Positions 12,561 to 57,105 of a stretch of 64,000 nt of DNA are shown one piece after another. The notes under the pieces were generated by a model. That model saw only the letters and a list, made by a program, of their open reading frames with translations. It ran no database searches and was not told the origin of the DNA. The stretch is from Candidatus Flemingiibacterium merdigallinarum. Its GTDB lineage: Bacteria > Bacillota > Clostridia > Oscillospirales > CAG-272. The position numbers were made by a program, and so were the translations under genes. The stretch is taken from NCBI GenBank assembly GCA_904386005.1, contig CAJFKR010000001.1:139525-203524 (forward strand), written 5' to 3'. Within the stretch, counting starts at the first letter, position 1; every line of letters starts with the position of its first letter.

Positions 12561-13457
12561 ATGAAACACAAACTGCGCAAACTTCTCGCGATGATCATGA
12601 CGCTGTGCATGATTATCCCCACACTCGCTACCGGAGCGGCTGCAACCGACACGACTACCGCTCCATTTACCGATATCGCCGGTCACTGGGCGGAGGACAC
12701 AATCACCCGCTGGGCTGATGTAGGTATTGTCAACGGATATCCGGACGGGACATTCAGACCGGATGAATTTATCACACGAGCCGAGCTTGCGAAGATTGTG
12801 ACGCTCGCGTTCGGGCTCGAAACCGAATCTGACGCTCCGCTCGCTGACTGCGACCCTGACGCGTGGTATTATGAATACGTTAGAACCGCAGCTGACTACA
12901 TACCGAAATATCCATACATAGTTGGCTACGAGTCGGTGCTCATTTATCATAATAACACTTCGACTGGAAATTTTCTGCCGGATGAGCCGGTGCTGCGCTA
13001 TCATGCAGCCGACGCGTTTGCGACGCTCGCACTCGAGTATGGCGGCATGACGCTTGAGATTCCCGAGGATGAATACGAGGTTCACGCGGCGATATCGGAA
13101 GTTTTCTTGGACGAGTCGATACAGAGCTTTCCGACTTACTACCACCTGTTCCGGCCGAGCAATCCCACCGACCCGAATCTGATCCGTTTGCAGAATTCAA
13201 TTTATGCGGTCTACAAGCTGGGACTGATGACCGGTACGCCGACCGATGGCGGGTTTTATTTCTTCCCATTTATTGGTCTGTCCCGCGCGGAGGTGCTGAC
13301 TATACTTGACCGTATTCTCACGCCGGAGGAAGTAAGCGAGAATATGAACGGCACCGAAACAGCGGAGGAGAGCGAGCCGGTAGAGACTGAACCAGTAGAG
13401 ACAGAACCGGTAGAGACCGAGCCTGTCGAAACCGAGTTGCCAATTTTGATATTCTAA
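12561..13457 (+). CDS. Secreted SLH-domain protein, paralog A, with EPVET x4 C-terminal repeat
   Basis: Signal peptide MKHKLRKLLAMIMTLCMIIPTLATGAAA. SLH motif FTDIAGHWAEDTITRWADVGIVNGYPDGTFRPDEFITRAELAKIV. AAAGGAG RBS. Confidence 0.75.
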   Translation: MKHKLRKLLAMIMTLCMIIPTLATGAAATDTTTAPFTDIAGHWAEDTITRWADVGIVNGYPDGTFRPDEFITRAELAKIVTLAFGLETESDAPLADCDPDAWYYEYVRTAADYIPKYPYIVGYESVLIYHNNTSTGNFLPDEPVLRYHAADAFATLALEYGGMTLEIPEDEYEVHAAISEVFLDESIQSFPTYYHLFRPSNPTDPNLIRLQNSIYAVYKLGLMTGTPTDGGFYFFPFIGLSRAEVLTILDRILTPEEVSENMNGTETAEESEPVETEPVETEPVETEPVETELPILIF

Positions 13458-13477
13458 TTTCGAAAGGAGCAATTACC

Positions 13478-15058
13478 ATGAAACACAAACTGCGCAAACT
13501 ACTCGCGATGATCATGACGCTGTGCATGATTATCCCCACACTCGTGACCGGAGCGGCTGCTGACGACGCGCCGTTCTCTGATATCGCCGGACACTGGGCA
13601 GAGGACACAATCACCCGCTGGGCTGATGTAGGCATTGTCAACGGTTATCCGGACGGGACGTTCAGACCGGATGAATTCATCACCCGCGCGGAACTTGCGA
13701 AGATTGTGACGCTGGCGTTCGGGCTGACTGAAAAGACTGTGACCGAACTCAATGGAATCGACCCGGACGAATGGTATTACAACTATGTCTTGACTGCGGC
13801 GGATTTTATAACTTTGCAACCGATGTCTTTTCTACCGGAAGAGCTACATTTTTATCGTGTAAATCGAAGCGGCGCCAATGAGTTCTTTCCGAATGAACCT
13901 GCGCTGCGCTATCAGGCTGCCGAAGCTTTTGTACAGCTGAAAATATACGCTGACGGCGGTCTGACAAAAGAGATGCCGGAAACTGAAAATACTCAAACTC
14001 TTACGATTCCACAAAGCGATATCACTGTTGAAGTTCCCAGCGCATTTGAAATATTTTTGGAATTAAGGGAAACATTCAATGATTCCGAAATCGGACCACA
14101 AATAATGATGCTCGGTCCGGGCAGATGGGATACAAACCAGATGCGGAATGTTACATTCATGTGGCTCGCTTATGAACTTGGTATCATGCAAGGCGAAATA
14201 GAAGCGGATGGCAGATATTTTCATCCCAACGATTCGCTGACCCGCGCAGAGGTGTTGACCATACTCGACCGCATTCTCACGCCTGAACAGGCGGCTGCTA
14301 ACATGGCTGCTGCCGAAGCTGCGCTTGATGTGCCTGCGCCCGAGCCTGAGCCCGAACCGGTAGAGCTGCCTATACCCGACGGAACCGTTCCGGAGTCAAT
14401 CGACCTTGCCGACCCGAAATACAACATCACGCTGACCCGTGCGCAGTTCGCCGAGCTGCTCACAGTCGCGTTCGACCTTGACGGCGAAACCTCGCTTGCG
14501 CTCACCGACGTTGACCCGAACAGCGAATATTACAGTTACATCAAGGCGGCGGCTGATTATATCCCGAAATTCACCGGATATGAAATGCGCACCGAGGTTG
14601 ACGCGTATTATCAGGCGCAAAACCAATCTCGATACGACGATTTCCTGCCGGACGAGACTATTCTGCGTATGCACGCGTCGCAGTCGTTTACAGATATATA
14701 TGAGCTTCTGTACGGTGTTGAGTTCCCGATTCCGGATGATGCTTATGAGACAGCAGGTGTGATTTCGGCTTATTATGCAGACCCTTCCATAACATCAGTG
14801 GGAGGATTTCTGAATCCTATGATGCGCCCGGGATTTATTGCTGGTAATGTACTGCAATTCCAAAACGCAATCTACACTGGACATGTTCTCGGCATAATGA
14901 ACGATCGAATCGGCACTGACGGGCTGACCTACTTCCTGCCGTACGACGCGCTGACGCTGTCCGACGCGCTCTATTCGATTTTCAAGCTGCTGCCCTCTGA
15001 CGACGCGGAGGTGTTCGCGTCCGAGCTTGATAGCCTGTCGTTCATGCAGGCTGAATAA
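13478..15058 (+). CDS. Secreted SLH-domain protein, paralog B (two copies of the module found in paralog A)
   Basis: The RBS, signal peptide and first SLH motif are near-identical to those of 12561..13457. A second module begins near ITLTRAQFAELLTVAFDL. Confidence 0.75.
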   Translation: MKHKLRKLLAMIMTLCMIIPTLVTGAAADDAPFSDIAGHWAEDTITRWADVGIVNGYPDGTFRPDEFITRAELAKIVTLAFGLTEKTVTELNGIDPDEWYYNYVLTAADFITLQPMSFLPEELHFYRVNRSGANEFFPNEPALRYQAAEAFVQLKIYADGGLTKEMPETENTQTLTIPQSDITVEVPSAFEIFLELRETFNDSEIGPQIMMLGPGRWDTNQMRNVTFMWLAYELGIMQGEIEADGRYFHPNDSLTRAEVLTILDRILTPEQAAANMAAAEAALDVPAPEPEPEPVELPIPDGTVPESIDLADPKYNITLTRAQFAELLTVAFDLDGETSLALTDVDPNSEYYSYIKAAADYIPKFTGYEMRTEVDAYYQAQNQSRYDDFLPDETILRMHASQSFTDIYELLYGVEFPIPDDAYETAGVISAYYADPSITSVGGFLNPMMRPGFIAGNVLQFQNAIYTGHVLGIMNDRIGTDGLTYFLPYDALTLSDALYSIFKLLPSDDAEVFASELDSLSFMQAE

Positions 15059-23810: not shown

Positions 23811-24920
23811 TTATACTTCGAAAGGATTCGAATATTCAAGTCCGAGGCTGTCGGCGAGATTGCGATTCGCGCACTTGCCGTCGTAAATGTTCAGTCCCAT
23901 GACCAGACCGTGGTCGAGCTTCATCGCCGCTTCGAGTCCGTGCTGCGCAATCAGCATTCCGTAACGGAAGGTGGCGTTCGACAGCGCGATCGTCGACGTG
24001 TTCGGCACCGCGCCTGGCATATTTCCGACGCAGTAGTGTACGATGCCCTCGTCGATGTATACCGGATTGTCGTGCGTCGTGACGTGCGACGACTCGCAGC
24101 AGCCGCCCTGGTCGATTGCGATGTCGACGATGACCGCGCCCTTTTTCATAATTCCGAGATGCTCGCGGCGGATAAGCTTCGGAGTCGACGCTCCGGGTAT
24201 CAGCACCGAGCCTATAACGAGGTCGGCTTCGCGCAGCGACTTGCGGATATTCGCTTCGGTGCTGTACAGCGTAGTCACCGACGCGCCGAATATGTCCTCG
24301 AGGTAGGACAGCCGGTTCAGGTTGACGTCGAGCAGCGTCACCTGCGCGTCAATGCCGACCGCGGCTTTCGCGGCGTATGTGCCGGCGACGCCGCCGCCGA
24401 TTATCACAATCTTACCGCGCTCGACTCCGGGTACTCCGCCGAGCAGGATTCCGCGGCCGCCGTACGCCGCTTCGAGGTACTTCGCGCCCTCCTGTATCGA
24501 CAGTCGTCCGGCAATCTGGCTCATCGGGCGCAGGCAGGGCAGGTTGCCGTCGGCGTCGGTGATCGTTTCGAACGCGACCGCTTTGACGCCGCGTTCGAGC
24601 AGGACGTTCGCAAGCTCGGGATTCGCGGCGAGATGCAGGTAGGTGTAGAGAATCTGACCCTCGCGCAGATACTGATACTCGCAGGGCTCGGGCTCCTTGA
24701 CCTTGACAATCATATCCGCTTTGGCGAACACCTCGGCGGGCGAGTCGACAATGACCGCTCCGGCGGCGGCGTATTCGTCGTCCGAGAAATTCGCGCCCTC
24801 GCCGGCGTGTGTCTCGACATATACGGTGTGCCCCTTGGCGACATAGTCGGAAACGTTGTCGGGCGTGAGTCCGACGCGGTACTCGTGGTTTTTCAGTTCT
24901 TTTGTAGTTCCGATAATCAT
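23811..24920 (-). CDS. ald: alanine dehydrogenase
   Basis: MIIGTTKELKNHEYRVGLTP N-terminus, NAD-binding motif VIIGGGVAGTYAAKAA, 369 aa. Confidence 0.92.
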   Translation of the reverse strand: MIIGTTKELKNHEYRVGLTPDNVSDYVAKGHTVYVETHAGEGANFSDDEYAAAGAVIVDSPAEVFAKADMIVKVKEPEPCEYQYLREGQILYTYLHLAANPELANVLLERGVKAVAFETITDADGNLPCLRPMSQIAGRLSIQEGAKYLEAAYGGRGILLGGVPGVERGKIVIIGGGVAGTYAAKAAVGIDAQVTLLDVNLNRLSYLEDIFGASVTTLYSTEANIRKSLREADLVIGSVLIPGASTPKLIRREHLGIMKKGAVIVDIAIDQGGCCESSHVTTHDNPVYIDEGIVHYCVGNMPGAVPNTSTIALSNATFRYGMLIAQHGLEAAMKLDHGLVMGLNIYDGKCANRNLADSLGLEYSNPFEV

Positions 24921-24980
24921 TATGTGTTCATCCTAATCTGTGTATTTCGACGCAATAACGCGCGGTAGTATAATATACTA

Positions 24981-25009
24981 TTATACTACCGATTCGTAGA
25001 GATGTCAAT
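24981..25009 (-). promoter_or_regulatory. sigma-A promoter of ald (TTGACA-17-TATAAT, exact), overlapped by an 11-bp-arm palindrome
   Basis: On the minus strand, TTGACA is at 25004..25009 and TATAAT at 24981..24986. The palindrome ggtagtataat-atact-attatactacc spans 24965..24991. Confidence 0.6.
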
Positions 25010-25120
25010 AATATTTGCGGAAATCGCCGCGATAAAATGCAATATTTTTGATTTTCGCGGCTAAAACGCAAAAAATCCGTTCGCACCGCTGAGTGTACGA
25101 CCGGATTTCTGACCGTAATA

Positions 25121-26113
25121 TCAATAATGCACCGGCACATCGGTTTGGGCGCGTATCGTATCGACCCAGCGCGTGACGGCATCGGGAGCGGGCATAGTGT
25201 CGCAAGACCGCGATGTCTCACGGTTCATCGGATATTCGCGCCCGAGCCGCAGGCATTTCGCCGCGCCGAGCGGGTGGTAGGGCTCGACGTCGATTTCGAT
25301 TATATTCGTCAGCCGATTCGCGAGCGAAGCTATTGCCGCGAGGTGCTCTGGGCGGTCGTTCAGCCCGGGGATTATCGGACAGCGGAGTATCGATTTTGCG
25401 CCGACCGAGTCGAGCCGCAGCAGGTTATCGACAATCTGTCGGTTGTCGACGCCAGTGTATTTTTTGTGCAGCACGGGCGAGGTCTCCTTATAGTCGTAGA
25501 GGAAGATGTCGCAGACCTCGGCGAGCTCACGCAGCCGCTCAAATGGCGCGCAGCCGCTCGTCTCGACGCAGGTGTGCAGTCCCGACGCCTTCGCGCCGCG
25601 GAGAAGATTATAGGTGAATTCGAAGCTGTACAGCGGCTCGCCGCCGGTGACTGTCAGTCCTCCACGGACTGTCAGTCCGTATTCGCTGCCGTAGAAGTCG
25701 CGGTCGCGCAGGACGGTATCGAGCGTCTCGCCGACGGTCAGCTCGCGCCCACAGAGCTCGAGCGCTTCGGCAGGGCAGACGTCGGCGCAGCGTCCGCAGC
25801 CAATGCAGGCGGCGCGGTCGAAGATGTGGATTCGGTCGGGGTGACTGTTGTCGCGGTCGGTGTTACCGACTATGCGGTGGCACTCGCAGACCCGCGCGCA
25901 CTCGCCGCAGCCGATACACTTGCTCTCGTCGTAGAACAGCTCGGGTTCACGCCGCTTCGACTCGGGGTTGTGACACCAAAGGCAGTCGAGCGGACAGCCC
26001 TTCAAAAACACCGACGTGCGTATGCCCGGTCCGTCGTGGACCGAGAAACACTGAATATTGAATACTGTCGCGGTTACGGTCGGGTCGAATTGTGTGGATA
26101 AAATCTGGTTCAT
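25121..26113 (-). CDS. Glycyl-radical enzyme activase AE-1 (radical SAM with two auxiliary ferredoxin-type clusters)
   Basis: FNIQCFSVHDGPGIRTSVFLKGCPLDCLWCHNPES, plus CIGCGECARVC and CIGCGRCADVCP. Start set at ATG 26113 (MNQIL), 43 nt after the GRE-1 stop. Confidence 0.9.
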   Translation of the reverse strand: MNQILSTQFDPTVTATVFNIQCFSVHDGPGIRTSVFLKGCPLDCLWCHNPESKRREPELFYDESKCIGCGECARVCECHRIVGNTDRDNSHPDRIHIFDRAACIGCGRCADVCPAEALELCGRELTVGETLDTVLRDRDFYGSEYGLTVRGGLTVTGGEPLYSFEFTYNLLRGAKASGLHTCVETSGCAPFERLRELAEVCDIFLYDYKETSPVLHKKYTGVDNRQIVDNLLRLDSVGAKSILRCPIIPGLNDRPEHLAAIASLANRLTNIIEIDVEPYHPLGAAKCLRLGREYPMNRETSRSCDTMPAPDAVTRWVDTIRAQTDVPVHY

Positions 26114-26156
26114 GTTTGATTTTGTGTCATCTGGTATCAAGTTCGTCGGCTTTATG

Positions 26157-28265
26157 TCAAATCTCGTGCTCGGTGCGCAGCAGAACTTCCTCCTGCATCT
26201 CGGGCGAGAGGTGGACGAAATAATCGCTGTAGCCGCCGATGCGCACGACGAGGTCGCGATAAGCCTCGGGGTTCTCACGCGCGGCGAGCAGAGTGTCGCG
26301 GTCGACGATATTTATCTGTATCTCGAAACCGCCGCGCGCGAGGTAGGCGCGGATAAGCTCGGCGGCTTTGCGGCGCGAGTCGGCGTTGAAGGTCTTTTTC
26401 GTGAACTTCATATTGACCGCGACGCCGCCGATGAGTTCGGTGTGGCTCCACTTCGTGCTCGACAGTATCGACGCGGTCGGACCGCGCCTCTCGCGCCCCT
26501 GACAGGGACCCGAGCCGTCGCCGAGCGGGAATCCGGCGAGCCGTCCGTCGGGAGTCGCGCCGGTCGAACGCCCGAACTGCTCGTGCATAATCCAGCAGAA
26601 CACGCTCGGCACGAGGTGTCCGTTTGTGAACATAGGCGTGTATTTTTTGCATTCGGCGACGATGAAGTCGATGATACGACCGAACAGCGCGTCTACGCGG
26701 TCGATATCGTTGCCGTATTTGTCACAGCGGTTTAATAGCTTCAGCCGCAGCGGCTCGAAGCCCTCGAAGTTTTTGTCAAGCGCGGTCTTAAGTTCTGCAA
26801 GCGTCAGCTCGCCGCGCTCGAATATCAAGGTTCGGATAGCGTGCAGCGAGTCGACGAGATTCGCCATGCCGACAAAGCTCGGCATGATCCAGTTGTAGCG
26901 CGCGCCTCCCTGCTCTATGTCGACTCCGCGACGAAGGCAGTCGTGGACAAAGCAGGAGAGCAGCGGAGTCATTCCGCGCTCGGCGCGAAGTGCGCGTATG
27001 CGGTTCTGCTCGTCGAAGTTCGCGCGGATGTGGTTCGACAGCCGGTCGAAATAAGCGTTTATCAGCGACTCGAAGTCGTCGTATTCGCCGCCGAGCAGCT
27101 CGAGCAGCAGCCCGGGCATATTTGTGTAGGGGCTGGCTACCCAGACGTTCGACGAAGCTATCGGCGTGATTTCGACGCAGGTACTGTGTATGTACATATG
27201 CGAGTCGGACTCGGGCAGACCGTAGAGCCGTATGCCCTTTGAGATCACGTCGTCGTTGAATATTGCTGGATGCGAGCGTCCGTGCGACAGAATCTCACAG
27301 GCGCAGTCGAGGTATTCGTTCGGCATATCGCGCGTCCAGCAGAGCCCGACCGACGGATAGACGAGCCGTATGTCGTCGACGGCGCGCATACCCATTATAG
27401 TCAGCTCGTTCACGACCGGCTTGCCGTTATCGCGGCCGCCGAGCATATAGCCGGACGAGAGTCCGCGCGGCACACGGCGGTTTATCTGTATCGCGAGGCA
27501 GTCGATGAGGCACTGCGCCGTCTCGTCATCGATCGCTCCGCGCTCGACGTCGGCTTTGTAATAGCGGTAGAGGTAGCGGTCGGGGCGGCCGAGCTGAAAC
27601 TGCTGCGCGGCGAAGTAGCGGAAAGGGTCGAGCGTCAGGCAGTGCGTGACAAAATGCACCGACTGCACGGCTTCCCAGAAGCTCTCGGCAGGACCCGCGG
27701 GCACGCGGCGGCAGATGTTGGCGATAGTCCGCAGCTCTGCGGCGCGCTGTGGGTCGGTGCATTCAGCCGCGAGCTGCTCGGCACGGTTCGCGTAACGGCT
27801 CGCGTAGACCTTGACGGCTTCAAGGCAGGTGCGGCAGCAGCGGTAGAACGCGGCTTTGTCGCCGTCCGTATCGCCGAGTCTTTCGAGACAGGAGTCTATA
27901 ATAGATATAATGCCGTCGATTCCACCATCGAGCAGCAGGTCGTAGTCGACAGCCATATGCGAGTCCTGTCCGGCGATAGCGAGGCGGCTCGCGGCAATCG
28001 GCTGCAAACGCCGCCACTCATCGGCGTCGGCTTCGGTGAGCGGCGCGGACAGGTGTCCGACAATCAGCTCGTCGTCGTCAATCTCGGCGTCGAGTCCGGA
28101 GAGGGCGGTATAATAGGAGCGTGCGTAGCGTTCGCGGTCGTCAAGCTCGGGGCGGCGCTCCCACTCACGCCAGAAGCCGAGGTACATGGCTTCGTGGCAG
28201 AAGCGCGGCTCAACGGCGGCGCTCCGCAGGCGTTCGATGCGCTCGCGGTCGGAAGCTGTAAGCAT
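26157..28265 (-). CDS. Glycyl-radical enzyme GRE-1 (PFL-like fold, eliminase-type Cys-x-Glu loop), 702 aa
   Basis: C-terminal VVRIGGYSDYF with Gly codon at 26232..26234. Thiyl loop STCVE with Cys codon at 27177..27179. N-terminal ERIERLR...DDELIVG pattern. GAAAGGTG RBS before ATG 28265. Confidence 0.9.
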   Translation of the reverse strand: MLTASDRERIERLRSAAVEPRFCHEAMYLGFWREWERRPELDDRERYARSYYTALSGLDAEIDDDELIVGHLSAPLTEADADEWRRLQPIAASRLAIAGQDSHMAVDYDLLLDGGIDGIISIIDSCLERLGDTDGDKAAFYRCCRTCLEAVKVYASRYANRAEQLAAECTDPQRAAELRTIANICRRVPAGPAESFWEAVQSVHFVTHCLTLDPFRYFAAQQFQLGRPDRYLYRYYKADVERGAIDDETAQCLIDCLAIQINRRVPRGLSSGYMLGGRDNGKPVVNELTIMGMRAVDDIRLVYPSVGLCWTRDMPNEYLDCACEILSHGRSHPAIFNDDVISKGIRLYGLPESDSHMYIHSTCVEITPIASSNVWVASPYTNMPGLLLELLGGEYDDFESLINAYFDRLSNHIRANFDEQNRIRALRAERGMTPLLSCFVHDCLRRGVDIEQGGARYNWIMPSFVGMANLVDSLHAIRTLIFERGELTLAELKTALDKNFEGFEPLRLKLLNRCDKYGNDIDRVDALFGRIIDFIVAECKKYTPMFTNGHLVPSVFCWIMHEQFGRSTGATPDGRLAGFPLGDGSGPCQGRERRGPTASILSSTKWSHTELIGGVAVNMKFTKKTFNADSRRKAAELIRAYLARGGFEIQINIVDRDTLLAARENPEAYRDLVVRIGGYSDYFVHLSPEMQEEVLLRTEHEI

Positions 28266-28287
28266 AGACACACACCTTTCAAACAAG

Positions 28288-28549
28288 AGTGGTCTCGACT
28301 TCAGCGAAGCTGAAGTCGAGAGAGTGGAGAGTGGAGAGTGGTCTCAAACCGCCGCAGGCGGTTTGAGAGCTGTGGTAGGAAATCGCCGGAGGCGATTTCC
28401 GGAATTGATTATAAGAGAGGAGAGATGAGAGTGGGGAACGGACTCACCGCGGATGGTTTCGAGAGAACGGGCTCCCAAAGGGTGGTTTCGAGAGAGCGGA
28501 CTCACCGCGTGTGGTTTCGAGAGAGTGGACTTCCCACGGGTGTCGGAGC
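28288..28549 (+). repeat. GA-rich modular hairpin array (three long GNRA-like-looped hairpins plus 29-nt tandem units x3.5)
   Basis: Hairpins at 28293..28321, 28342..28368 and 28378..28400. 29-nt units start at 28438, 28467, 28496 and 28525. The 28318..28400 core recurs at 53783..53862. Confidence 0.7.
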
Positions 28550-28609
28550 TATAATAGCGGGCGGAATGGATTTATGATTGATATCGGTATTAAGACGCTC
28601 CTATAATCA

Positions 28610-29125
28610 TCATTCCTTGACAAAATAGCACATATCGAGAATGACGTTTCCTTTTTCGTCGGGGGTGGTGAAGCGGGGGCACTGGTAACGCTCGAAGAAC
28701 CAGAACGCGCCGTCCATAATCGCAAGCTCAAGCCCCTCGTCGGCAAGGCGAGGACAGATAACGTCCTCACGGCAGTACAGCTCGCCGTTTGACTCATTGC
28801 CGTAGACCTAAGCGACGCCGATTGGCGCGGCGGGGAAATCGTGATAGTCGAGTCCCTCGGGAACGGCGGTGTCAGGCTTCATGAACATTCCGATCCAATA
28901 TTCGAACGGCTCGCCGTCGAGGTGGCGCATGAGTCCGATATACGCGCCGCTGTCCTCGAAAAACTGCTCTCCGGCGATTGCTTCGAGCCGCTCGAATAGT
29001 CCGGTCTCGAACGCTTCGCCCCATTTTGCGCCGAAGCTGCCGTCGTCGCGGTCGTCGTCCGAGTATTTTTTGCCGATAAAGCGGGTCGCGGGCAGGGATT
29101 GTTTATAGATTCGCTTAATTTCCAT
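28610..29125 (-). pseudogene. GyrI-like / AraC-effector-binding-domain small-molecule-binding protein interrupted by an in-frame TAG
   Basis: MEIKRIYKQSLPATRFIGKKY...PIGVA, then TAG (28808..28810), then in-frame VYGNESNGELYCRED...MCYFVKE to the stop at 28610..28612. AAGGAG RBS before ATG 29125. Confidence 0.7.
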
Positions 29126-29373
29126 CGTGTGACTCCTTAGCTTTGTATTGCCGAACGCCATCGGATGCTAAGCGTTCGATTATGGTATAATCATACTACC
29201 ACACGGCTTCTGCCATGTCAATAGCCGGCGCGCAACCTGACGATATTCTATAAATGCTACAAAAATGCAGGTGCAATTTGTACAAATTGCGAGGGCGAGC
29301 TGTCAATATGCTTTTAATACTCCGATTGTGTTCGACTTCGATTTGATGTCATATCAAGAAATATGTTCGTTTC

Positions 29374-30351
29374 TCACAACAGCTTTACTCCGTGAGTGGT
29401 CAGATATTCGCCCGCCGCTCGCAGCTCATCGCGCGTCGGCGGCTGACAATCGCTGTCGCGAACATTGCGTCCGAGCGCGGACAGCTTCGAGTTGCCCCAG
29501 GCGTGATAGGGCAGCAGCTTCACGCCGCCGCAGCGCTTCAAGCGTAGGTACAGCGACGCGATATTGTCGAGGTGCCGCTCGTCGAGGTTAACGCCCTTTA
29601 TCAGGATGCACCGCAGCTGTGTCGGCGCGCCGAGCGAGTCGACCGCGAGCAGATTGTCGACTATCACATCGAGCGCGGCGCCGGTGTTCGCGCGATGCCG
29701 AGCGTCGTCCGAGTCCTTGTAGTCCCAGAGCAGCAGGTCGCACAGCTCAACCAGCCGAGGTATGTATTTCGGGTCAAAGCAGCCGCAGGTCTCGACCGCC
29801 GTTCCGATACCGCGTCGGCGGCACTCGGCGAGCAGATCGAGAGCGCAGTCGGGGCTGTACATCGGTTCGCCGCCCGACAGCGTGATTCCACCCTTAGTTC
29901 CCATGAACGCGCGGTCGCGCTCGACAAGGTCGGCGATTTCGGATATCGACATGAGCCGGTACGACGCCTCGAGCGCACCGGTCGGACAGGCGTCGACGCA
30001 GGCAAAGCAGGATTTGCAGCGCGCGCGGTAGATTGTATGCGAGATGGGGATATTGGTGGGAGTGGGTACGTCAGTGTGAACAGCTTCGAATATATGCGCG
30101 CGGCTCGGGCAAGCCTTGGCGCACTCGCCGCAGCCGATGCACTTCTTTTCATAATATAATAGCTGCGCTTCGCGGCTCTGCGTCTCGGGGTTGTGACACC
30201 ACCGGCAGGACAGCGGGCAGCCGGCGAAAAACACTACCGTCCGCACGCCCGGTCCGTCGTGCATACAAAAACGCTGAATATTTGTTACCGGTATCTGAAT
30301 TCCTATTACCTCCTTTCCTTGCCGATGTTTTGTGACGGTTTTGCGAAGCAA
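29374..30351 (-). CDS. Glycyl-radical enzyme activase AE-2 (start uncertain: TTG 30351, or ATT 30300 behind a strong RBS)
   Basis: NIQRFCMHDGPGVRTVVFFAGCPLSCRWCHNPE, plus CIGCGECAKACP and CKSCFACVDACP. Confidence 0.88.
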   Translation of the reverse strand: MLRKTVTKHRQGKEVIGIQIPVTNIQRFCMHDGPGVRTVVFFAGCPLSCRWCHNPETQSREAQLLYYEKKCIGCGECAKACPSRAHIFEAVHTDVPTPTNIPISHTIYRARCKSCFACVDACPTGALEASYRLMSISEIADLVERDRAFMGTKGGITLSGGEPMYSPDCALDLLAECRRRGIGTAVETCGCFDPKYIPRLVELCDLLLWDYKDSDDARHRANTGAALDVIVDNLLAVDSLGAPTQLRCILIKGVNLDERHLDNIASLYLRLKRCGGVKLLPYHAWGNSKLSALGRNVRDSDCQPPTRDELRAAGEYLTTHGVKLL

Positions 30352-30405
30352 ATCGCGGTCTGTGACCGCGAAGTCACAAAACGCGTGGTTTGAAAAATTT
30401 ATTTT

Positions 30406-32568
30406 TCAAACTTTGCCCTCAAGCTCGGCGATTATCATGTTCTGCCAGTCGCAGTTCAGCGTCACGAAGCGTGCGTTCCAGCCCGACACGCGCACCGACA
30501 GCGCTTGATAATTCTCGGGGTGCGCCTGCGCGTCGCGCAGTATGCTCGCGTCGGCGACGTCCGGCTGCATGAAGAAACCGCCGAGCGTAACAAAGCCGCG
30601 CATCAGTCCGACGATAGCGTCGAGTCCCTCGTCGCCGTCGACGCTGTCGGGCAATAGCTTGATGTCGAGTGCCGCGCCGGTCACTTGCTTTGTGAGGTCG
30701 GCGGCGGCATACGACCGGATAATCGCGGTCGCGCCCTCGCGGTCACTGCCCGGGGTCGGCGAGCAGTTCGGGGCGAGCACCTCATGTGCGCGATGTCCGT
30801 GCGGCGACGCGAGCCGGTTCGGCGCCCACTCGAGCTGACGACCGAACGTGCTGACTCCGCTCGGAAAGCGATACCCGCAATTTGTGCCGAGCCTTTGCTC
30901 CATGTCATGACAGATGTCCGAGAAGTCGGAGAGCAGCTTTGAATAGATCGAGTCGACCTCGGGGTTGTCGTTGCCGAAGTAGCGGTACGCGGTCAGCATA
31001 TGCTGTCGGAGCGGCTCGCTTTCGTCCCAGTCCGCGGCGAGAATATCGAAGAATTCATCGAGCCCCAGCAGCCCCTCGTCGAATACGGCTTTCTTAATCG
31101 CGTACAGGCTGTTCACCGTGTCGGCGAGTCCGCCGATGTGCGGCGAGATGACGTTGTAGACCGGTCCGCCCTCGAAGTAGGAATATCCCCTCTCGATACA
31201 GCCCTGCTCGAACAGCGACACTACCGTGCAAGGGGCGGTCGGACGCCAGACGAGCCTGCCGTCAGGGTCGCGCTCGGTCTCGAAGCGCGCGAGCTGACCG
31301 CGTCCGATTCCCTCGACATATGCCTTGAGGTCGCGGACATACGCGTCGTACAGCGCGTCGAAGTCGGCGAAATCTCGATTCTTGTAGTCGGCGAGCGTCG
31401 TGTGCTGCAAAATCGCGAGCGAGTCGAACGGCGTGTAGATGAAGTAGGTCTTGCCCGGGATCTGCACCTCCCAGCAGCCGTCGTTCGCGAACCTTTTCGC
31501 TTCGCGCTCGTCGTATCCGAATTTGGTCAAGGCGTCGATAATCAGCGGCTCGTTGTACAGCGCGATTATGCCGCCGCCGTAGCGGATAGTGTTCGCGACG
31601 CGGTAGAGAAGCTCGTCGCTCGAGTCGGGCGAGATACGGACGGTTATCGGGAAATCGCTGATACCAAGCTCGTCGATTATGTCGAGGACGAGGTAGGTGA
31701 CATTGCACTCGACCGAGTTGTCGTTCTCGTCGATGCCGCCGAGCAGGATATTCTGATAATGCTGCGCATCGCCACTGCCGTAGTCGCCGCCGCTGACCCA
31801 CTCGCAGCCCTTGATGAAGAAGTGCGCGAGCAGCTCGCGCGCTTCGTCGAGTGTGATTTTGCCGTCGGCGAGGTCGCGCTCGAGATACTCGCCGAGCAGC
31901 ATATCAATCCGTCCGATGCCGGGCCAGTTTCCGCAGAGCCGCACAAACGCGAACGTGAACCACAGGCTCTGCACCGCCTCGCGGAAATTCGACGCCGGCT
32001 CGAACGGCACGCGGCGGAGTATGTCGGCGTTGTCGTGATATCCGCCCGCTTCAAGCGCGTTGATATAGCGGTCGCGCCAGATTAGCATTGAGTCAAGGCA
32101 GCTTTTACAGCTTGCGAGAAACTTAAGCCGTCGGGTCGAATACAGGTCGCTGTTAAATATTATCTCCGACATGGATTTTTCTATTTTGTCGTAAAGACCT
32201 ACGACTCCGTCTCTCAGCACCGACACAAAGTCGAGCGTCAGGTGGCTGACGCTGCCGAACACCGGACGACCGTCGATTGTCGCCGGAACGACGTGCGATA
32301 TCGCAAGTCCGAGTGTCGCCGCGCCCGATATAAGCTCGCCGTCACAGATTCGTATCGGCGCGCTCTCGGCGATACGGCGGATCGCGGCGTTGTATTTTTT
32401 CAGGTCGGACAGCTCCGATATGCCGTCGATATCGTCGAGCGGCACCGACATCACGCGTCGGGTGTCGAGCCCGTAGCGGTGGTCATACAGCGATTCATAC
32501 GCGAAGCGTCGCGTCGCGTCCGAAAGACGCACCGGACGCTTTTCTTTTGATACTGTGAAGAATTCCAT
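30406..32568 (-). CDS. Glycyl-radical enzyme GRE-2, 720 aa
   Basis: C-terminal SVRVSGWNARF with Gly codon at 30481..30483. Thiyl loop DGCWE with Cys codon at 31474..31476. GGGGAG RBS before ATG 32568. Confidence 0.9.
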   Translation of the reverse strand: MEFFTVSKEKRPVRLSDATRRFAYESLYDHRYGLDTRRVMSVPLDDIDGISELSDLKKYNAAIRRIAESAPIRICDGELISGAATLGLAISHVVPATIDGRPVFGSVSHLTLDFVSVLRDGVVGLYDKIEKSMSEIIFNSDLYSTRRLKFLASCKSCLDSMLIWRDRYINALEAGGYHDNADILRRVPFEPASNFREAVQSLWFTFAFVRLCGNWPGIGRIDMLLGEYLERDLADGKITLDEARELLAHFFIKGCEWVSGGDYGSGDAQHYQNILLGGIDENDNSVECNVTYLVLDIIDELGISDFPITVRISPDSSDELLYRVANTIRYGGGIIALYNEPLIIDALTKFGYDEREAKRFANDGCWEVQIPGKTYFIYTPFDSLAILQHTTLADYKNRDFADFDALYDAYVRDLKAYVEGIGRGQLARFETERDPDGRLVWRPTAPCTVVSLFEQGCIERGYSYFEGGPVYNVISPHIGGLADTVNSLYAIKKAVFDEGLLGLDEFFDILAADWDESEPLRQHMLTAYRYFGNDNPEVDSIYSKLLSDFSDICHDMEQRLGTNCGYRFPSGVSTFGRQLEWAPNRLASPHGHRAHEVLAPNCSPTPGSDREGATAIIRSYAAADLTKQVTGAALDIKLLPDSVDGDEGLDAIVGLMRGFVTLGGFFMQPDVADASILRDAQAHPENYQALSVRVSGWNARFVTLNCDWQNMIIAELEGKV

Positions 32569-32764
32569 TGCGGTATCTCCCCTCACAAGAATTGATGTGT
32601 GATTTAATTATACCATATATCGCGCCCGATTTGTATTGACAAAACTATGATAAATATGTATAATACTATTAATAAAAAAACCGCTGTCCGGCGCTTCAGT
32701 CGCACGGCAGCGGAAATATATAAATTATGGATTCGCGGTTTTTGCTAAAAATATGAGGGATAAT

Positions 32765-33547
32765 ATGAAAATCGAGACGATAGACATAAAATACCATTTC
32801 TACGGGCGGTTTCGCGACAATCACTGCGACAACGTGCGCAACATCAAGTCGCTGCCCTGGCTGTCGGTCGTGCAGGCGGAGACCGGACGCTATTCTCTGC
32901 GGCTCGGCGGCAGCGAGACATACGAGATCCCGACCGGCGGCTTCTTCATCGCGCCGTCGCAGGTTACACAGGACATCGTCCACCACGTCGACCAAATGTC
33001 GGGGACGATGAACGCGCGCTGGCTGTTCATTGAGATTGAGGTGAACGGCGGCTACAAGCTCGAACACCTCTACGATTTTCCGGCGGTGGTCGGCGGGGAG
33101 ACTTCGATCAAATTGAACCGGCTGTTCGACGATATGTTCGCGTCGCGCACTCTCTGCGAGCGGATGAGTATTTACTACCGGATAATCGACATTCTGCTCG
33201 GCATCGCGTCGCCGAGGTCGGTGATGCTCGCCGGAAATATGCTCGATATCGCCGGCTACATAGCGAGCAACTACAGCCGTGACCTCTCCGTCGCCGAGCT
33301 CGCGGCAAGGGCGCATATGTCCGAGTCGAACTTCTACGCGGTGTTCCGGCGCAACTTCGGTATGTCGCCGATGGCCTATCTGAACCGATACCGTCTGTCG
33401 GCGGCGTCCGTGCTGTTGACCAGAACAGATCTGACGATAGCCGAGGTCGCGTCGTCGGTCGGGTATACCGACCCGCTCTATTTCAGCCGGCAGTTTCATC
33501 GGCTGTTTCAGGCATCGCCTCGCGACTACCGCAAGGCGGGGGTGTGA
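32765..33547 (+). CDS. AraC-family transcriptional regulator, divergent from GRE-2
   Basis: HTH region LSVAELAARAHMSESNFYAVFRRNFGMSPMAYLNRYRL...YTDPLYFSRQF. GAGGGA RBS before ATG 32765. Confidence 0.85.
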   Translation: MKIETIDIKYHFYGRFRDNHCDNVRNIKSLPWLSVVQAETGRYSLRLGGSETYEIPTGGFFIAPSQVTQDIVHHVDQMSGTMNARWLFIEIEVNGGYKLEHLYDFPAVVGGETSIKLNRLFDDMFASRTLCERMSIYYRIIDILLGIASPRSVMLAGNMLDIAGYIASNYSRDLSVAELAARAHMSESNFYAVFRRNFGMSPMAYLNRYRLSAASVLLTRTDLTIAEVASSVGYTDPLYFSRQFHRLFQASPRDYRKAGV

Positions 33548-33777
33548 GCGGTTTGAACCTAATTCGTTATAATATACAAAATGTCCTTTTATTAGTTGGC
33601 ATGATATACAAAAATGGTTTATCGCTGTTATAAATATTGCAATTATGCGTTAAGTATGATATAATAAATTCATAAATAGCCGCGCTATAATTACATAGTA
33701 CGGCAGAGTCTGCAAATGATCACTCGGCGGACTTCGCCGTATATACGACGCTATATGGAGAAAGGACGGTCATACTC

Positions 33778-35256
33778 ATGCTGAAATATTCAAATCGAAG
33801 TCTGCTGCCGGTTCTGGTGCTGCTCGCGGCGATAATAGCTTCCTGCGGTACCGTCGAGACGGCTGATACCGAAGCCACGACGGCGATTAGCGATACAGGA
33901 ACGGATACATCATCCGAAAAGCCGCTTCCGGAGCTGCCGGAGGACGACTTCGACGGCTACAATTTCCGTGTGGCGCACTGGGATATGCCCGACTGGCCTA
34001 TGCGCGCCTGCGTCGATATTGTAGGCGAGAACAACGGCGACACGATAAGCGACGCGGTCTATCGGCGCAATCTCGCGGTCTGCGAGCGTTACAATTTTGA
34101 AATATCACTGATTTCGGTGAGGTGGGACGAGCTGAAAGGCATGGTCACGAACGCTGTCATGGCGGGCGACGACGCGTTCGACCTTGTGATTCTGCGTATG
34201 TATGAGGGAAAGGATCTGCTTACAACCGGTCAGCTTGTCGATTTCCACAGCATTCCCTACATCGATCTGACCGCGCCGTGGTGGGACTCGAATTGCTCGG
34301 ACAATCTGACTATCGACGGCAAGCTCTATTACGCCGCGTCCGACCTTACTATCGAGGACAAGAACGCGACGTCGGCAATCCTGTTTAACAAAAAAATCGC
34401 CGACGATTACGGCGTCGAAGATCTGTATTCGCTGGTGAGATCGGGTGAATGGACGATTGAACGCATGATGAACATCTATTCCGAAGTCACTTCTGACCTT
34501 GACGGCGACGGCGAGCTGGGCGAAAACGATATCTGGGGCTTCCTCGGCGGCAACGATGTCGGCAGCGCGTTCTTCCTCGGCGGGGGCGGCAAGTATTTGT
34601 CCAAGGACGGGAGCGGCGTCTTTTACGACTCGTTCAACACCGAACGGAATATAGAGCTGTCGCAGCTGATACAGCGGCTTATGTCTGACAGCGACAATTT
34701 CTACAATCACCACACAGGTGCGCAAAAGGTTCCGATAACCGACGACACCGAATATCGAAATCTGTTCGCGAGCGGAGCGGGGCTGTTCTATTGGGATAGG
34801 CTCGACGCGGTCTCGGACCTGCGTTCGCTCGACACCGACTTCGGTATTCTGCCTACACCGAAATATGACGCCGAACAGGAAAATTACATAAATCAGGTTA
34901 GCCATCACACGATGGGATTACTCTCGGTGCCGGCGACGCAGACCGACCTTGAGCGCACCGGCATCATACTCGAGGCGCTGTCGGCCGAGTCGCGCTATGA
35001 GCTCAATCCCGCTTATTATGATGTGTTGCTTAAGACCAAGTCGATACGCGACGAGGATTCGTCGGAAATGCTCGACATAATACTGGCGAATCGCTGTTAT
35101 GACTTCGCCGCGATATTCAACATCGGCGGCTGGCCTGATGAACTGATAAATGTGATGAAGAACGGGTCGGCTATAGTTTCAAGCTATGAAAGCTACGCGA
35201 CAAAAATCGAATCCGCGCTGGACGACATCTACGACGAGCTGTCGATACTCGACTGA
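33778..35256 (+). CDS. ABC transporter sugar/oligosaccharide-binding lipoprotein (family 1), with no adjacent permease genes
   Basis: Lipobox LLAAIIASCGT. Paralogous to 58038..59468 (shared DAVYRRN, WW, SGxWxIxRM motifs). Confidence 0.85.
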   Translation: MLKYSNRSLLPVLVLLAAIIASCGTVETADTEATTAISDTGTDTSSEKPLPELPEDDFDGYNFRVAHWDMPDWPMRACVDIVGENNGDTISDAVYRRNLAVCERYNFEISLISVRWDELKGMVTNAVMAGDDAFDLVILRMYEGKDLLTTGQLVDFHSIPYIDLTAPWWDSNCSDNLTIDGKLYYAASDLTIEDKNATSAILFNKKIADDYGVEDLYSLVRSGEWTIERMMNIYSEVTSDLDGDGELGENDIWGFLGGNDVGSAFFLGGGGKYLSKDGSGVFYDSFNTERNIELSQLIQRLMSDSDNFYNHHTGAQKVPITDDTEYRNLFASGAGLFYWDRLDAVSDLRSLDTDFGILPTPKYDAEQENYINQVSHHTMGLLSVPATQTDLERTGIILEALSAESRYELNPAYYDVLLKTKSIRDEDSSEMLDIILANRCYDFAAIFNIGGWPDELINVMKNGSAIVSSYESYATKIESALDDIYDELSILD

Positions 35257-35346
35257 CCTTTGCGATAAATATAATACACAAAAACAGTTCTGCCTCGCGC
35301 GGAACTGTTTTTGTGCGGGTCTGAAATATCGACCGGCTCGGACTAT

Positions 35347-35943
35347 TCAACATTTGCGCCCCATGACGCAGTGCTCCATTATCTCGCATATCTGCTCGAT
35401 TGAGTCGGCGCAGTCGCGTTTCAGCCACTCATTGACTATCGCCATGAGCCCGTTCATGTAAAAGGTCATCATATAGCCCTGTTCCTGCTCGGGAACCTGA
35501 AATCGCTCCAATATCGGTCTGAATATATGCTCAAATATATGATGGTAGGTTTTATATAGCCGGAGCGACTCGGAATTTTTGAGCACGGTGCGAAACAAGC
35601 GCTTGTGTCCGGCGATGTAGGAAAGATAGGGCATCAGATATTCGGGCGTTATCAGATACAGCTCCTCGAGCGGGCATATGCGTATTCTGTTTACAAGGTC
35701 GTCCGACGTCGGCTTCATATGCGAAAAAAAGTCGCTGACGAAATACCGCACGCTTTCCTCGAGCAGGTCGCCTATCGACTCATAGTGCAGATAAAAGGTG
35801 GAGCGGTTGACACCGGCGGCGGCGCACAGCTCCTTTACCGTGATATATTCGATGTCCTTCTTCTCGAGCAGTTCGAGAAACGCCTGATCCATACGAGCCG
35901 CGGTGCTGTAATATTTGCTTTCGGATCTATTCAAGCTTATCAC
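35347..35943 (-). CDS. TetR/AcrR-family transcriptional regulator
   Basis: N-terminal HTH ITVKELCAAAGVNRSTFYLHYESIGDLL. Confidence 0.88.
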   Translation of the reverse strand: MISLNRSESKYYSTAARMDQAFLELLEKKDIEYITVKELCAAAGVNRSTFYLHYESIGDLLEESVRYFVSDFFSHMKPTSDDLVNRIRICPLEELYLITPEYLMPYLSYIAGHKRLFRTVLKNSESLRLYKTYHHIFEHIFRPILERFQVPEQEQGYMMTFYMNGLMAIVNEWLKRDCADSIEQICEIMEHCVMGRKC

Positions 35944-37193: not shown

Positions 37194-37268
37194 GTTTGTT
37201 TGCCTCCTGTTATTTTGTGATTACAGTATACCACAAAATAAAGTCGGACTGAACAACACAAATTATAA

Positions 37269-37344
37269 TTTGTGTTGACACAAATCATGATTTGTGTTGA
37301 CACAAACGGCGATATGTGTTGACACAAACGGCGATATGTGTTGA
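37269..37344. promoter_or_regulatory. Array of 3.5 near-palindromic 16-bp boxes (TTTGTGTTGACACAAA) phased every 22 bp; putative TetR operator array
   Basis: Boxes at 37269..37284, 37291..37306, 37313..37328, and a partial one at 37337..37344. They lie 76-150 nt upstream of ATG 37193. Confidence 0.6.
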
Positions 37345-37426: not shown

Positions 37427-38962
37427 TTACTGCCCGAACTTGAGCTTCGCGAGACCTCCCTCGGCGGTCTCCTTGTATTGGCGCGAAATGTCGAGTCCGG
37501 TCTCCTTCATCACGTGTATGACCTTGTCGAGCGAAATTTTGCGCGAGTCGACGAGGAAGCTCGCGAGGCTGACCGCGTTTATCGCGCGCATTGCCGCGAC
37601 CGCGTTGCGCTCGATGCAGGGGATCTGCACAAGCCCGCATATCGGGTCGCAGGTCAGACCTAAGTGGTGCTCGATGGCGATTTCGGCGGCGTATTCAATC
37701 TTGTCGAGGTCGAGTCCGAACAGCTCGGCGAGCGACGCCGCGGCCATCGCGCAGGCTGAGCCGATCTCCGCCTGACAGCCGCACTCGCTGCCCGATATCG
37801 ACGCGTTCGTCTTGATGAGGTTGCCGACGACACCGCCCGCCGCGAGCGCGCGCAGTATCTCCATATCGGTATAGTCGCGCTTCTTCTGCTGATAGTATAA
37901 AACCGCCGGCAAAACTCCCGACGAGCCGCAGGTCGGCGCGGTGACTATCGTCTCGGCGCAGGCGTTCTGCTCGCTGACCGCGAACGCGTAAGCGCAGACC
38001 ATGCGGTTCTCGCGCGTCTCGGCACTCTCGTCTATATGCTCGCGGCATAAAAGCTGCTTTGCCTTTTTCTGCACGCCGAGTCCGCCCGGGAGTATGCCCT
38101 CGTCGGCGAGTCCGCGCTCAATGCTCGCTTTCATGCCGCGCCAGATTTCGGAGAGGTAGTCCCAGATGCCGCTGCCCTCGGCGCGCTCGACATACTGCCA
38201 GAGCCGCAGATTGTTCGCGCGGCACTCCTTCGCTATCTTCTCGAACGACGATACCGGATAGACGTCGGGCGGCTCGGGCAGCAGGTATTTGTCGTTCTCG
38301 AATCTTCCTCCGCCGGTGCTGACAACGCGGATGCGGTCAATCTGTGCGCCTTGTCTGAACGCGATCATGTCCATTGTGTTCGGGTGCGGCAGGTCAAGCT
38401 CGGTCGTGTTGAAAATGATATCGCAGCTGACCGGCGCCAATGTGGCTTTGATTACCCGGTCGGTGCCGTGACCGATTCCGGTCTTGGCGAGCGAGCCGTA
38501 GAGTATCACCTTGAAACGGTCGGCGGTCGGGTTCTTCTCGCGGAACATACGCGACGCGCGTTCGGGCGCTATAGTGTGCGAGCTCGAGGGTCCGCGCCCG
38601 ACGAGGTATAGCTCGGTCAGCGATTTCATACCGGTGGGAGAGGGCTCATCTCTGATTTCAGATTGCAGCTCGCTGCCGAAAAAGTAATCGACCGGAACAT
38701 TGAAGATTTTCGCGAGCTTATACACATTCTCGGTTGACGGCAGCGCGAGTCCGGTCTCCCATTTCGAGACGGCGCGGTTGCTGACGCCGAGCCGCTCGCC
38801 GAGCTCTCGCTGTGTGATGCCGCTGCGTCTGCGCAGCGCGGCGAAGGTCTTAGCAAAGGCTGTGTCTTTAGCAAAGGCTGTGTCTTTAGCAAAGGCTGTG
38901 TCTTTAGCAAAGGTTTCGCCTTTAGCAAAGGCTTTGCCTTTGGCAAATTCGTTTTCGTTCAT
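37427..38962 (-). CDS. XRE-type HTH domain fused to single-chain iron-sulfur L-serine dehydratase (beta + alpha domains)
   Basis: HTH ITQRELGERLGVSNRAVSKWETG. Dehydratase motifs GRGPSSSHT and APTCGSSGVLPAVL. N-terminal FAK-type hexapeptide repeats. Confidence 0.85.
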   Translation of the reverse strand: MNENEFAKGKAFAKGETFAKDTAFAKDTAFAKDTAFAKTFAALRRRSGITQRELGERLGVSNRAVSKWETGLALPSTENVYKLAKIFNVPVDYFFGSELQSEIRDEPSPTGMKSLTELYLVGRGPSSSHTIAPERASRMFREKNPTADRFKVILYGSLAKTGIGHGTDRVIKATLAPVSCDIIFNTTELDLPHPNTMDMIAFRQGAQIDRIRVVSTGGGRFENDKYLLPEPPDVYPVSSFEKIAKECRANNLRLWQYVERAEGSGIWDYLSEIWRGMKASIERGLADEGILPGGLGVQKKAKQLLCREHIDESAETRENRMVCAYAFAVSEQNACAETIVTAPTCGSSGVLPAVLYYQQKKRDYTDMEILRALAAGGVVGNLIKTNASISGSECGCQAEIGSACAMAAASLAELFGLDLDKIEYAAEIAIEHHLGLTCDPICGLVQIPCIERNAVAAMRAINAVSLASFLVDSRKISLDKVIHVMKETGLDISRQYKETAEGGLAKLKFGQ

Positions 38963-51574: not shown

Positions 51575-51701
51575 ATTTTTTTTGTCTTTTTCCCCTTGCC
51601 AAACCCCGCGCTTTGCGGTATAATATTCACAAAGCAATATGATTTGTCCTGCTAAAACACAGGATATATCTGCCAAAATCAGTCAGAAAGGATAATTGCC
51701 A

Positions 51702-53912: not shown

Positions 53913-53935
53913 CACGATTATGAATTATCCCGGCT

Positions 53936-57032: not shown

Positions 57033-57105
57033 GGAGAAATAGATAATAAATTGACATAACAAATGGCTGTCGTTTTTTAGCGACAGCCATATTGTGTATT
57101 CTTTG

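Follow-up and report, generated by a model that had tools for sequence, protein, structure and literature searches.

The 64-kb stretch of contig CAJFKR010000001.1 from Candidatus Flemingiibacterium merdigallinarum (the window, meaning the whole stretch that was analysed) carries two glycyl radical enzyme (GRE) genes, GRE-1 and GRE-2, each followed directly by a gene for a radical-SAM activating enzyme (AE-1 and AE-2). Transcription on the minus strand runs in the order GRE-2, AE-2, an open reading frame (ORF) interrupted by TAG, a hairpin/repeat region, GRE-1, AE-1 and alanine dehydrogenase (ald), while the plus strand carries an AraC-family gene and then the gene for a 492-aa lipoprotein, with a TetR gene next on the minus strand. 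The gene map of the initial annotation was recovered in full, each listed feature lying where it had been placed. GRE-1 and GRE-2 appear to belong to two old, distinct families, and the best explanation of the locus as a whole, to which we assign a probability of roughly 0.7, is a pair of independent, self-contained GRE modules with the mechanism and regulation proposed below. The features, with the evidence for each, are as follows.

23811-24920, minus strand: alanine dehydrogenase, ald (TIGR00518, 483 bits versus a cutoff of 392)
25121-26113, minus strand: AE-1, radical-SAM glycyl-radical activating enzyme, 330 aa (TIGR02494)
26157-28265, minus strand: GRE-1, pyruvate formate-lyase (PFL)-like glycyl radical enzyme, 702 aa (PFL-like and Gly_radical domains)
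28293-28542, unstranded: multi-hairpin array resembling repetitive extragenic palindromic (REP) elements (three perfect hairpins and three 29-nt tandem units)
28610-29125, minus strand: GyrI-like/Cass2-superfamily gene, 171 codons, with an in-frame TAG at 28808-28810
29193-29221, minus strand: promoter-like site, TTGACA-17-TAGTAT with TG (consensus scan)
29273-29290, minus strand: palindrome, apparent remnant of the terminator of a sugar-binding-protein (SBP) gene, SBP-B (comparison with sister strain L169)
29374-30351, minus strand: AE-2, radical-SAM activating enzyme, 325 aa from a TTG start (TIGR02494)
30406-32568, minus strand: GRE-2, PFL-like glycyl radical enzyme, 720 aa (PFL-like and Gly_radical domains)
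32569-32764: spacer between AraC and GRE-2, 196 nt
32600-32675: conserved regulatory core with predicted back-to-back divergent promoters and direct repeats R2 and R1 (31-species alignment)
32765-33547, plus strand: AraC-family regulator, 260 aa (HTH_18/HTH_AraC)
33778-35256, plus strand: permease-less lipoprotein, 492 aa, with a predicted CUT1-type sugar-binding-protein fold (lipobox, AlphaFold model)
35347-35943, minus strand: TetR
51696-59468: third GRE module, with GRE-3, AE-3, a GH36-like gene, AraC-3 and a paralogue of the lipoprotein

Both GREs have significant matches to PF02901 and PF01228. His103, Cys363-Val-Glu365 and R-I-G-G678-Y are invariant in 20 members of the GRE-1 family, as are His109, Cys365-Trp-Glu367 and R-V-S-G696-W in 20 members of the GRE-2 family. 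The Cys-x-Glu loops read HSTCVEITP (GRE-1) and NDGCWEVQIPG (GRE-2), and the conserved His of each enzyme aligns with His164 of glycerol dehydratase (GDH) and His166 of propanediol dehydratase (PD). The Cys-loop CXE motif is a common hallmark of GRE 1,2-eliminases and isomerases (2026 review, PMC13450708), and GRE-1 and GRE-2 both carry the motifs of this class, of which they are putative members. Their activases pass the TIGR02494 cutoff of 174 (AE-1, 306.7 bits; AE-2, 290.3 bits), each being encoded directly downstream of its GRE, and AE-1 has a CxxxCxxC motif and ferredoxin-type clusters. The AE-1 ORF extends to 26278; its conserved N-terminus and a public gene call give 330 aa. For AE-2 the public call is 296 aa, starting at 30264. 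In comparison with the sister strain (L169), the ratio of nonsynonymous to synonymous substitution rates (dN/dS) is 0.126 for GRE-1, 0.125 for GRE-2 and 0.073 for the flanking housekeeping gene ald, values of ~0.125 that point to purifying selection on both GREs, and an identical GRE-1 protein occurs in 38 contigs.

All curated enzyme-specific NCBIfam cutoffs that were compared (GDH/PFL2-3, HypD, CutC, HpsG/HpfG, IAD, HPAD and PFL) are missed by far by both GREs, the best such model being TIGR01774 (PFL2-3 subfamily; 437 bits for GRE-1 and 276 bits for GRE-2, cutoff 678). The best solved relatives of GRE-1 are CutC, GDH and PflD (E ~1e-90), and that of GRE-2 is PD (5i2a, E = 1e-64), with HpyG (8id1) among the top matches. 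A PFL-like barrel, the glycyl-radical domain, the Cys-x-Glu loop, the aligned His and a dedicated activase with ferredoxin-type clusters are common to both GREs and to GDH and PD (1R8W, 5I2A). However, similarity to these two is remote (E 1e-92 and 1e-65), and GRE-1 and GRE-2 are short (~700 aa), starting ~60 residues ‘late’ when compared to solved GREs and being ~60-80 residues shorter N-terminally than GDH and PD. In addition, the diol-binding Asp (GDH Asp447) is not kept, being replaced by Ala in GRE-1 and by a gap or Thr in GRE-2 in pairwise HMMER alignments, although Glu435 and the His are retained, and no microcompartment or aldehyde-processing genes are found nearby. By motifs and scores, GRE-1 and GRE-2 are new, uncharacterised families of a known kind, the CXE-type GREs.

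A second point of comparison is provided by PflD and YbiW (PDB 8YJO, 8ID7), CXE-type GRE isomerases that act on a sugar derivative, 1,5-anhydrohexitol-6-phosphate, and whose product enters glycolysis via generic enzymes (PMC13450708). A similar use of generic enzymes would explain why dedicated downstream genes are missing here. PflD is among the top matches of GRE-1, but the corresponding model (NF007437) gives only 331 bits for GRE-1 versus a cutoff of 1109, and the GRE-1 locus has no phosphotransferase-system or aldolase context.

GRE-1 and GRE-2 are 25% identical to each other, and much closer relatives of each occur in other species (696-702 aa and 58-68% identity for GRE-1; ~709 aa and 57-66% identity for GRE-2), essentially all from uncultured Clostridia. 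A GRE-2 relative was found in at least 564 GTDB species, with one genome scanned per species. These identities argue against local duplication, and each activase is usually closer to activases of its own GRE family. The earlier description of the locus as a duplicated and diverged GRE module is therefore abandoned in favour of two apparently old and distinct families, for neither of which was a describing paper found in literature searches.

Neighbourhoods were compared for 80 GRE-2 loci from 80 species and for 80 metagenomic loci of the GRE-1 family (41-94% identity). Of the 66 loci with room for one, 50 have an orthologous AE directly downstream of GRE-2, and an orthologous AraC gene (full length, 34-52% identity) lies divergently upstream in 37 of the 69 loci with room (median spacer 97 nt). 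All other neighbour families occur in seven GRE-2 loci or fewer, and where AraC or AE is missing the neighbours are unrelated housekeeping genes. Contexts of the GRE-1 family are heterogeneous, and since only 21/80 loci have an AE nearby, many members must depend on an activase encoded elsewhere. Annotated loci of closer GRE-1 relatives include AraC(cupin)-GRE-AE, GRE-AE-LacI-DUF5107-GH123-like and GH32-GRE-AE with two DUF5722 genes. In one further locus (L168, 4719-14095) a gene of the URO-D family stands between a GRE-2-like gene (49% identity) and a GRE-1-like gene (64% identity), indicating that the two families can adjoin elsewhere too; here a CUT2-type sugar ATP-binding cassette (ABC) system follows the GRE-1-like gene and no activase is found nearby. 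In three other loci of the GRE-1 family (L116-L118), the partners of the GRE are a membrane protein of Acyl_transf_3 type and an SBP-like lipoprotein.

Neighbour-ORF clustering and bulk Pfam scans of both sets of 80 loci identified no conserved pathway partner beside either GRE family, and the observation that no downstream enzyme is present holds both here and generally. Between ald and TetR no further enzyme, permease or ATPase was found, and none of the scanned ORFs of ≥200 aa across the window encodes an ABC permease or ATPase. The search for co-occurring genes suggested in the initial annotation found AE and AraC recurring beside GRE-2, but no pathway genes, and an SBP homologue in only ~5/80 loci.

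The proposal that AraC controls GRE-2 from the divergent spacer is strongly supported by the recurrence of this arrangement and by conservation of the spacer core, and can be refined to a defined predicted operator. AraC matches HTH_18/HTH_AraC (E = 1e-24, residues 170-261) as well as the solved AraC DNA-binding domain 2k9s, while residues 1-160 have no Pfam or PDB match and so no recognisable AraC_binding/cupin domain. In an alignment of the spacer from 31 species, including the window, a core of ~65 nt (consensus AATAGTATTATACATnnnTTTnGTAGnATTGTCAATTGnTTTTnATAGTTTTATnCTGTATAAT) is conserved at the nucleotide level, whereas the proteins are only ~60% identical. The core contains a consensus match to a promoter for araC (P_araC, TTGACA-17-TATAAT; 32636-32664 in the window, plus strand) and, abutting its -35, one for GRE-2 (P_GRE-2, TTGnTT-17-TATAAT; -10 at 32607-32612, minus strand), together with direct repeats, (A/G)TAGnnTTnT, 21-22 nt apart. 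The window retains two of these, R1 (32658-32670) and R2 (32638-32650), centred at about -64 and -43 of the predicted GRE-2 start, and has ~95 extra nt, with a hairpin, between the core and the AraC start codon. When the window was searched for the operator motif only the spacer itself was found, with no copy upstream of the lipoprotein gene or of GRE-1.

The araC-araBAD system, with its divergent, autoregulated promoters, is the paradigm for class II activation by AraC-type regulators, and by analogy the positions of R1 and R2 would correspond to this classic geometry. As in araC-araBAD, the regulator is divergent, two direct-repeat half-sites lie 21 bp apart, the predicted sites overlap the regulator's own promoter and the proximal half-site overlaps a weak -35. 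Unlike in araC-araBAD, no AraC_binding/cupin match is detectable in the N-terminal sensor domain.

The lipoprotein was previously labelled as sugar-binding, and this label is sustained at the level of fold. It has a lipobox (IIASC), but its match to Pfam SBP_bac_1 (E = 0.013, 16 bits) is below the cutoff of 26; neither SBP_bac_1 nor SBP_bac_8 reaches its gathering score, and a sequence-only search of the PDB gave no match. Some homologues at 35-50% identity carry PF13416 or PF01547, and a profile built from 53 homologues matches the arabino-oligosaccharide binder AbnE (E = 9e-4). An AlphaFold2 model (pLDDT 90) matches MalE, CbpB, Lmo0181, AbnE, UspC and UgpB in Foldseek (E ~1e-14, best 4e-15; probability 1.00; target-normalised TM-score 0.6-0.69), indicating a genuine CUT1-type sugar-binding-protein fold with a lipobox. 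The modelled two-lobe fold and the lipobox are shared with CUT1 SBPs such as MalE, CbpB and AbnE. However, members of the lipoprotein family are ~490-500 aa long, in contrast to 370-430 aa for solved CUT1 SBPs, and neither here nor in close relatives do permease or ATPase genes adjoin. Homologues in three other loci (L170, L171 and L173; 46-56% identity) also lack adjacent permeases, which suggests that the missing permease is a family trait rather than a peculiarity of this locus. A separate promoter-like site for the lipoprotein gene is found at 33637-33665.

The closest homologues of the lipoprotein outside the strain (~55% identity; L170, 5358-11222, and L171, 5355-12036), both without adjacent permeases, are flanked on one side by a gene for a ~870-aa protein (in L170 with a weak GH106 match, in L171 with none in Pfam) and on the other by a gene encoding HTH_3 fused to a GFO_IDH_MocA/GH109-type domain. 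Between the window (33778-35256) and the sister strain (L169, 7313-8791), synonymous divergence (dS) of the lipoprotein gene is 0.009, compared with 0.13-0.23 for the flanking AraC, GRE-2, GRE-1 and ald genes; this low dS suggests a recent recombination tract over the SBP gene.

An SBP homologue is found within 10 kb in ~5/80 GRE-2 loci and is directly adjacent only in the closest GTDB species (L006), where SBP-like genes flank AraC-GRE-2-AE on both sides. In the GRE-1 family, 7/80 loci have such a homologue in the vicinity, in four cases immediately adjacent. A second SBP paralogue (13333-14757; 474 aa, 33% identity), SBP-B, is present in the sister strain between AE-2 and the GyrI-like gene, followed by a full inverted repeat and a T-run; the window has lost this gene in a 1.6-kb deletion with a boundary at ~29290, which left part of the terminator palindrome at 29273-29290. 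AraC and SBP genes are co-directional in the window, the sister strain and L006. The link between lipoprotein and GRE is lineage-specific. The pairing of the GREs with a sugar-type binding protein emphasised in the initial annotation is thus uncommon across the GRE-2 family as a whole, but recurs in the sister strain, in L006, in part of the GRE-1 family and at the third GRE locus in the window.

This third module (51696-60553) comprises GRE-3, AE-3, a GH36/raffinose-synthase-like gene, AraC-3, the SBP paralogue and an aldose 1-epimerase gene. GRE-3, of 663 aa, carries a CWE loop together with an RIWGW motif, and the SBP paralogue shares 32% identity with the 492-aa lipoprotein. AraC-3 (57106-57915) has a cupin-type N-terminal domain, unlike the AraC at GRE-2.

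In the reading of GRE-1 and GRE-2 as two independent modules, each consists of a short PFL-like GRE and then its own radical-SAM activase, which would place the radical on Gly678 (GRE-1) or Gly696 (GRE-2). The glycyl radical would in turn generate a thiyl radical on Cys363 or Cys365, and the Glu two residues on, with His103 or His109, may drive 1,2-elimination or isomerising ring-opening of a hydroxylated small molecule, giving a carbonyl product usable by ordinary metabolism. GRE-2 and AE-2 would be transcribed from the promoter with the weak -35 that lies back-to-back with the consensus promoter of AraC. From the geometry of the sites and their conservation across species, AraC most likely binds the two repeats spaced by 21 bp, activates GRE-2 on sensing its substrate, and regulates itself. 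The predicted transcript starts from the -10 at 32607-32612 and runs through GRE-2, a hairpin (30371-30353) and AE-2 to the terminator remnant (29290-29273). GRE-1 and AE-1 are probably on a transcript from 29221-29193 that includes the GyrI-like pseudogene and the array and ends at a terminator-like hairpin just past the AE-1 stop (25100-25081); from the GyrI-like stop to the GRE-1 start, the consensus scan revealed no promoter-like site on the minus strand. A TGG-to-TAG mutation has disabled the GyrI-like gene in this lineage. The lipoprotein would be a sugar-type binding protein from a generally permease-less family, with a carbohydrate-derived substrate plausible.

Between the GRE-2 stop and the AE-2 start there are two hairpins, one AT-rich (30388-30411) and one GC-rich and followed by TTTG (30371-30353), which could lower expression of the activase relative to the GRE.

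Several points weigh against the reading as two modules with this mechanism and regulation. The catalytic steps are inferred from conserved motifs only, and both enzymes lack the diol-binding Asp. Promoters and terminators are throughout consensus matches, and the neighbourhood analyses rest on naive ORF calls. In both the window and its closest relatives the operator core's third repeat is diverged, and only 54% of GRE-2 loci have an adjacent AraC gene. The 80 GRE-2 loci have no consistent sugar genes, and 115 immediate neighbours in the GRE-1 family match 126 different Pfam families, with the activase the only dominant one.

A carbohydrate-derived substrate for the GREs is plausible, the evidence being suggestive only: the SBP pairings and the glycan genes that the window carries, among them those for a fucosidase and a fucose isomerase. 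Contexts with a carbohydrate flavour are found for relatives of GRE-1 (GH32, LacI/DUF5107/GH123, CUT2 ABC) and for GRE-3 (GH36-like, aldose epimerase). Alternatively, the substrates may be hydroxy compounds derived from amino acids, amines or sulfonates, as for HypD, HpyG, CutC and IslA, and the sugar-related neighbours background. This is a real possibility, though not a probable one. The models for HypD, sulfopropanediol dehydratase and CutC score about equal to those for diol dehydratases, HpyG is among the top matches of GRE-2, alanine dehydrogenase is adjacent, GRE-2 loci lack conserved sugar genes, and in a window generally rich in glycan genes adjacency may be background. On the other hand, SBP-like lipoproteins and genes of glycoside-hydrolase type recur beside GRE-1-family and GRE-3 genes, and no specific family cutoff is reached.

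It is unlikely that the two modules arose by local duplication and divergence and act on related substrates derived from sugars, with AraC, the lipoprotein and GRE-2 forming one functional unit. The modules are adjacent and share a GRE-AE architecture, their activases are 45% identical, AraC and SBP genes are co-directional in all three genomes named above, and the two types of GRE gene also adjoin in L168. However, the low identity between GRE-1 and GRE-2, set against 57-68% to relatives elsewhere, is difficult to reconcile with a duplicated pair, and a GRE-1-type gene is adjacent in 0/80 GRE-2 loci. The rarity of SBP homologues within 10 kb of GRE-2 and the confinement of the operator motif to its own spacer also argue against a single unit with the lipoprotein.

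Decay of the GRE-1 side, with GRE-1 and AE-1 no longer expressed or needed in this lineage, is likewise improbable. It would be consistent with the fixed nonsense codon in the GyrI-like gene, with absence from the window of the 1.6-kb SBP-B segment that is present in the sister strain and L006, and with the lack of a consensus promoter directly upstream of GRE-1. GRE-1 and AE-1 are nevertheless intact, with all catalytic residues kept, GRE-1 has a dN/dS like that of flanking ald, and the identical protein recurs in the 38 contigs.

Homologues of the GyrI-like protein are ~172 aa long and have a conserved Trp at the position of the TAG, and in the sister strain the gene is intact (171 aa) and encodes Trp there (TGG). 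The TAG is one transition from TGG, and the truncated product, of 105 aa, has entries in 53 blocks of the collection, which argues that the allele is fixed in the lineage and is not a sequencing error. The dN/dS of the ORF is 0.131 versus the sister strain, suggesting that inactivation is recent. Decoding of the TAG (pyrrolysine or suppression) to give a full-length protein, to which the fixation of the allele across many assemblies and the open, conserved downstream frame might otherwise point, was rejected as very improbable, given the conserved Trp at the site, the intact TGG gene in the sister strain, the use of TAG to end 3/36 ordinary genes in the window and the absence of any pyl-related family from general Pfam scans of window proteins, none of which was a search aimed at pyl genes.

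The name ‘GyrI-like’ itself stands only at the level of the superfamily. The window sequence has no match to the Pfam families PF06445 and PF14526, while its homologues score 17-26 bits against GyrI-like/Cass2 models, just below cutoffs. Some homologues are fused to AraC HTH domains, and the family profile matches the GyrI-like effector domain of BrlR (E = 5e-4). A GyrI-like gene was found beside GRE-1 in none of the 80 loci of the GRE-1 family.

The array between the GyrI-like gene and GRE-1 contains three perfect hairpins (28293-28321, 28342-28368 and 28378-28400) with stems of 10-13 bp and 3-nt loops, and three 29-nt tandem units at 28436-28542. Its RNA fold has a z-score of -5.6. A second copy (53723-53862) lies between GRE-3 and AE-3, with ~130 nt aligning with 28290-28420; one stem is identical and another is maintained via two compensatory changes (GGAAATCGCC/GGCGATTTCC versus GCAATTCGCC/GGCGAATTGC). 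Both copies are in the same plus-strand orientation, with neighbouring genes on opposite strands. The array of the sister strain keeps the CTCTC...GAGACCAC frame but differs in its palindromes and in how many units it has, and the element was found only in loci of its own species. An Rfam search over 24800-35400, with E up to 1, found nothing relevant to the array or to untranslated regions. Classical terminators were considered and rejected for these hairpins, as none has a T-run and there is a single weak pattern match. Upstream hairpins are found in only 3/60 GRE-1 and 4/73 GRE-2 loci, near background, and are not a trait of either GRE family.

We read the array as a REP-like intergenic element and not as a specific riboswitch. 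REP elements and bacterial interspersed mosaic elements (BIMEs) are a class of intergenic palindromic elements, and the array resembles them in its clusters of short, GC-rich, perfect hairpins, its intercistronic position, its presence in more than one copy, its strain-variable units and its compensatory stems. It differs in that both of the copies seen within the 64 kb lie beside GRE genes and in its distinctive CTCTC...GAGACCAC flanks. It is speculative that the element influences mRNA stability or the GRE:AE ratio.

A public metagenome scaffold contains this locus too, with identical gene calls. In a GenBank metagenome-assembled genome labelled ‘Firmicutes bacterium’, ‘hypothetical protein’ is the name given to GRE-1, GRE-2 and the lipoprotein alike (H9681_13080, _13095 and _13105), and public records have no other name for the two GREs. 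Entire GRE clades are still without experimentally validated function (PMC13450708), and GRE-1 and GRE-2 represent two such families, very widespread in ruminant and human gut Clostridia. The AraC at GRE-2, with its sharply defined cross-species operator/promoter, is a potential biosensor for discovery of the substrate by metabolite screening, a route around the need to guess substrates for an oxygen-sensitive enzyme, which is the usual bottleneck. Should the substrate prove to be a common molecule from diet or host, a new radical reaction in gut carbon metabolism would be implied. A broader suggestion, which we consider doubtful, is that uncultured gut Clostridia have an undescribed type of radical-enzyme locus for carbohydrate utilisation, made up of short (660-720 aa) CXE GREs, AraC sensors and SBP-like lipoproteins without permeases, in which the GREs would cleave C-O bonds by new chemistry in a molecule of glycan origin, such as an anhydro-sugar, a deoxy-sugar or a polyol. 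If so, the window holds three such modules; the GRE-2 family alone occurs in ≥564 species.

Beyond the TetR gene, a minus-strand ORF (37427-38962) encodes an unusual fusion of an XRE-type HTH with the alpha and beta domains of L-serine dehydratase, and beyond its 3′ end there is a long imperfect palindrome/repeat (37254-37321; CAACACAAATTATAATTTGTGTTGACACAAAT...).

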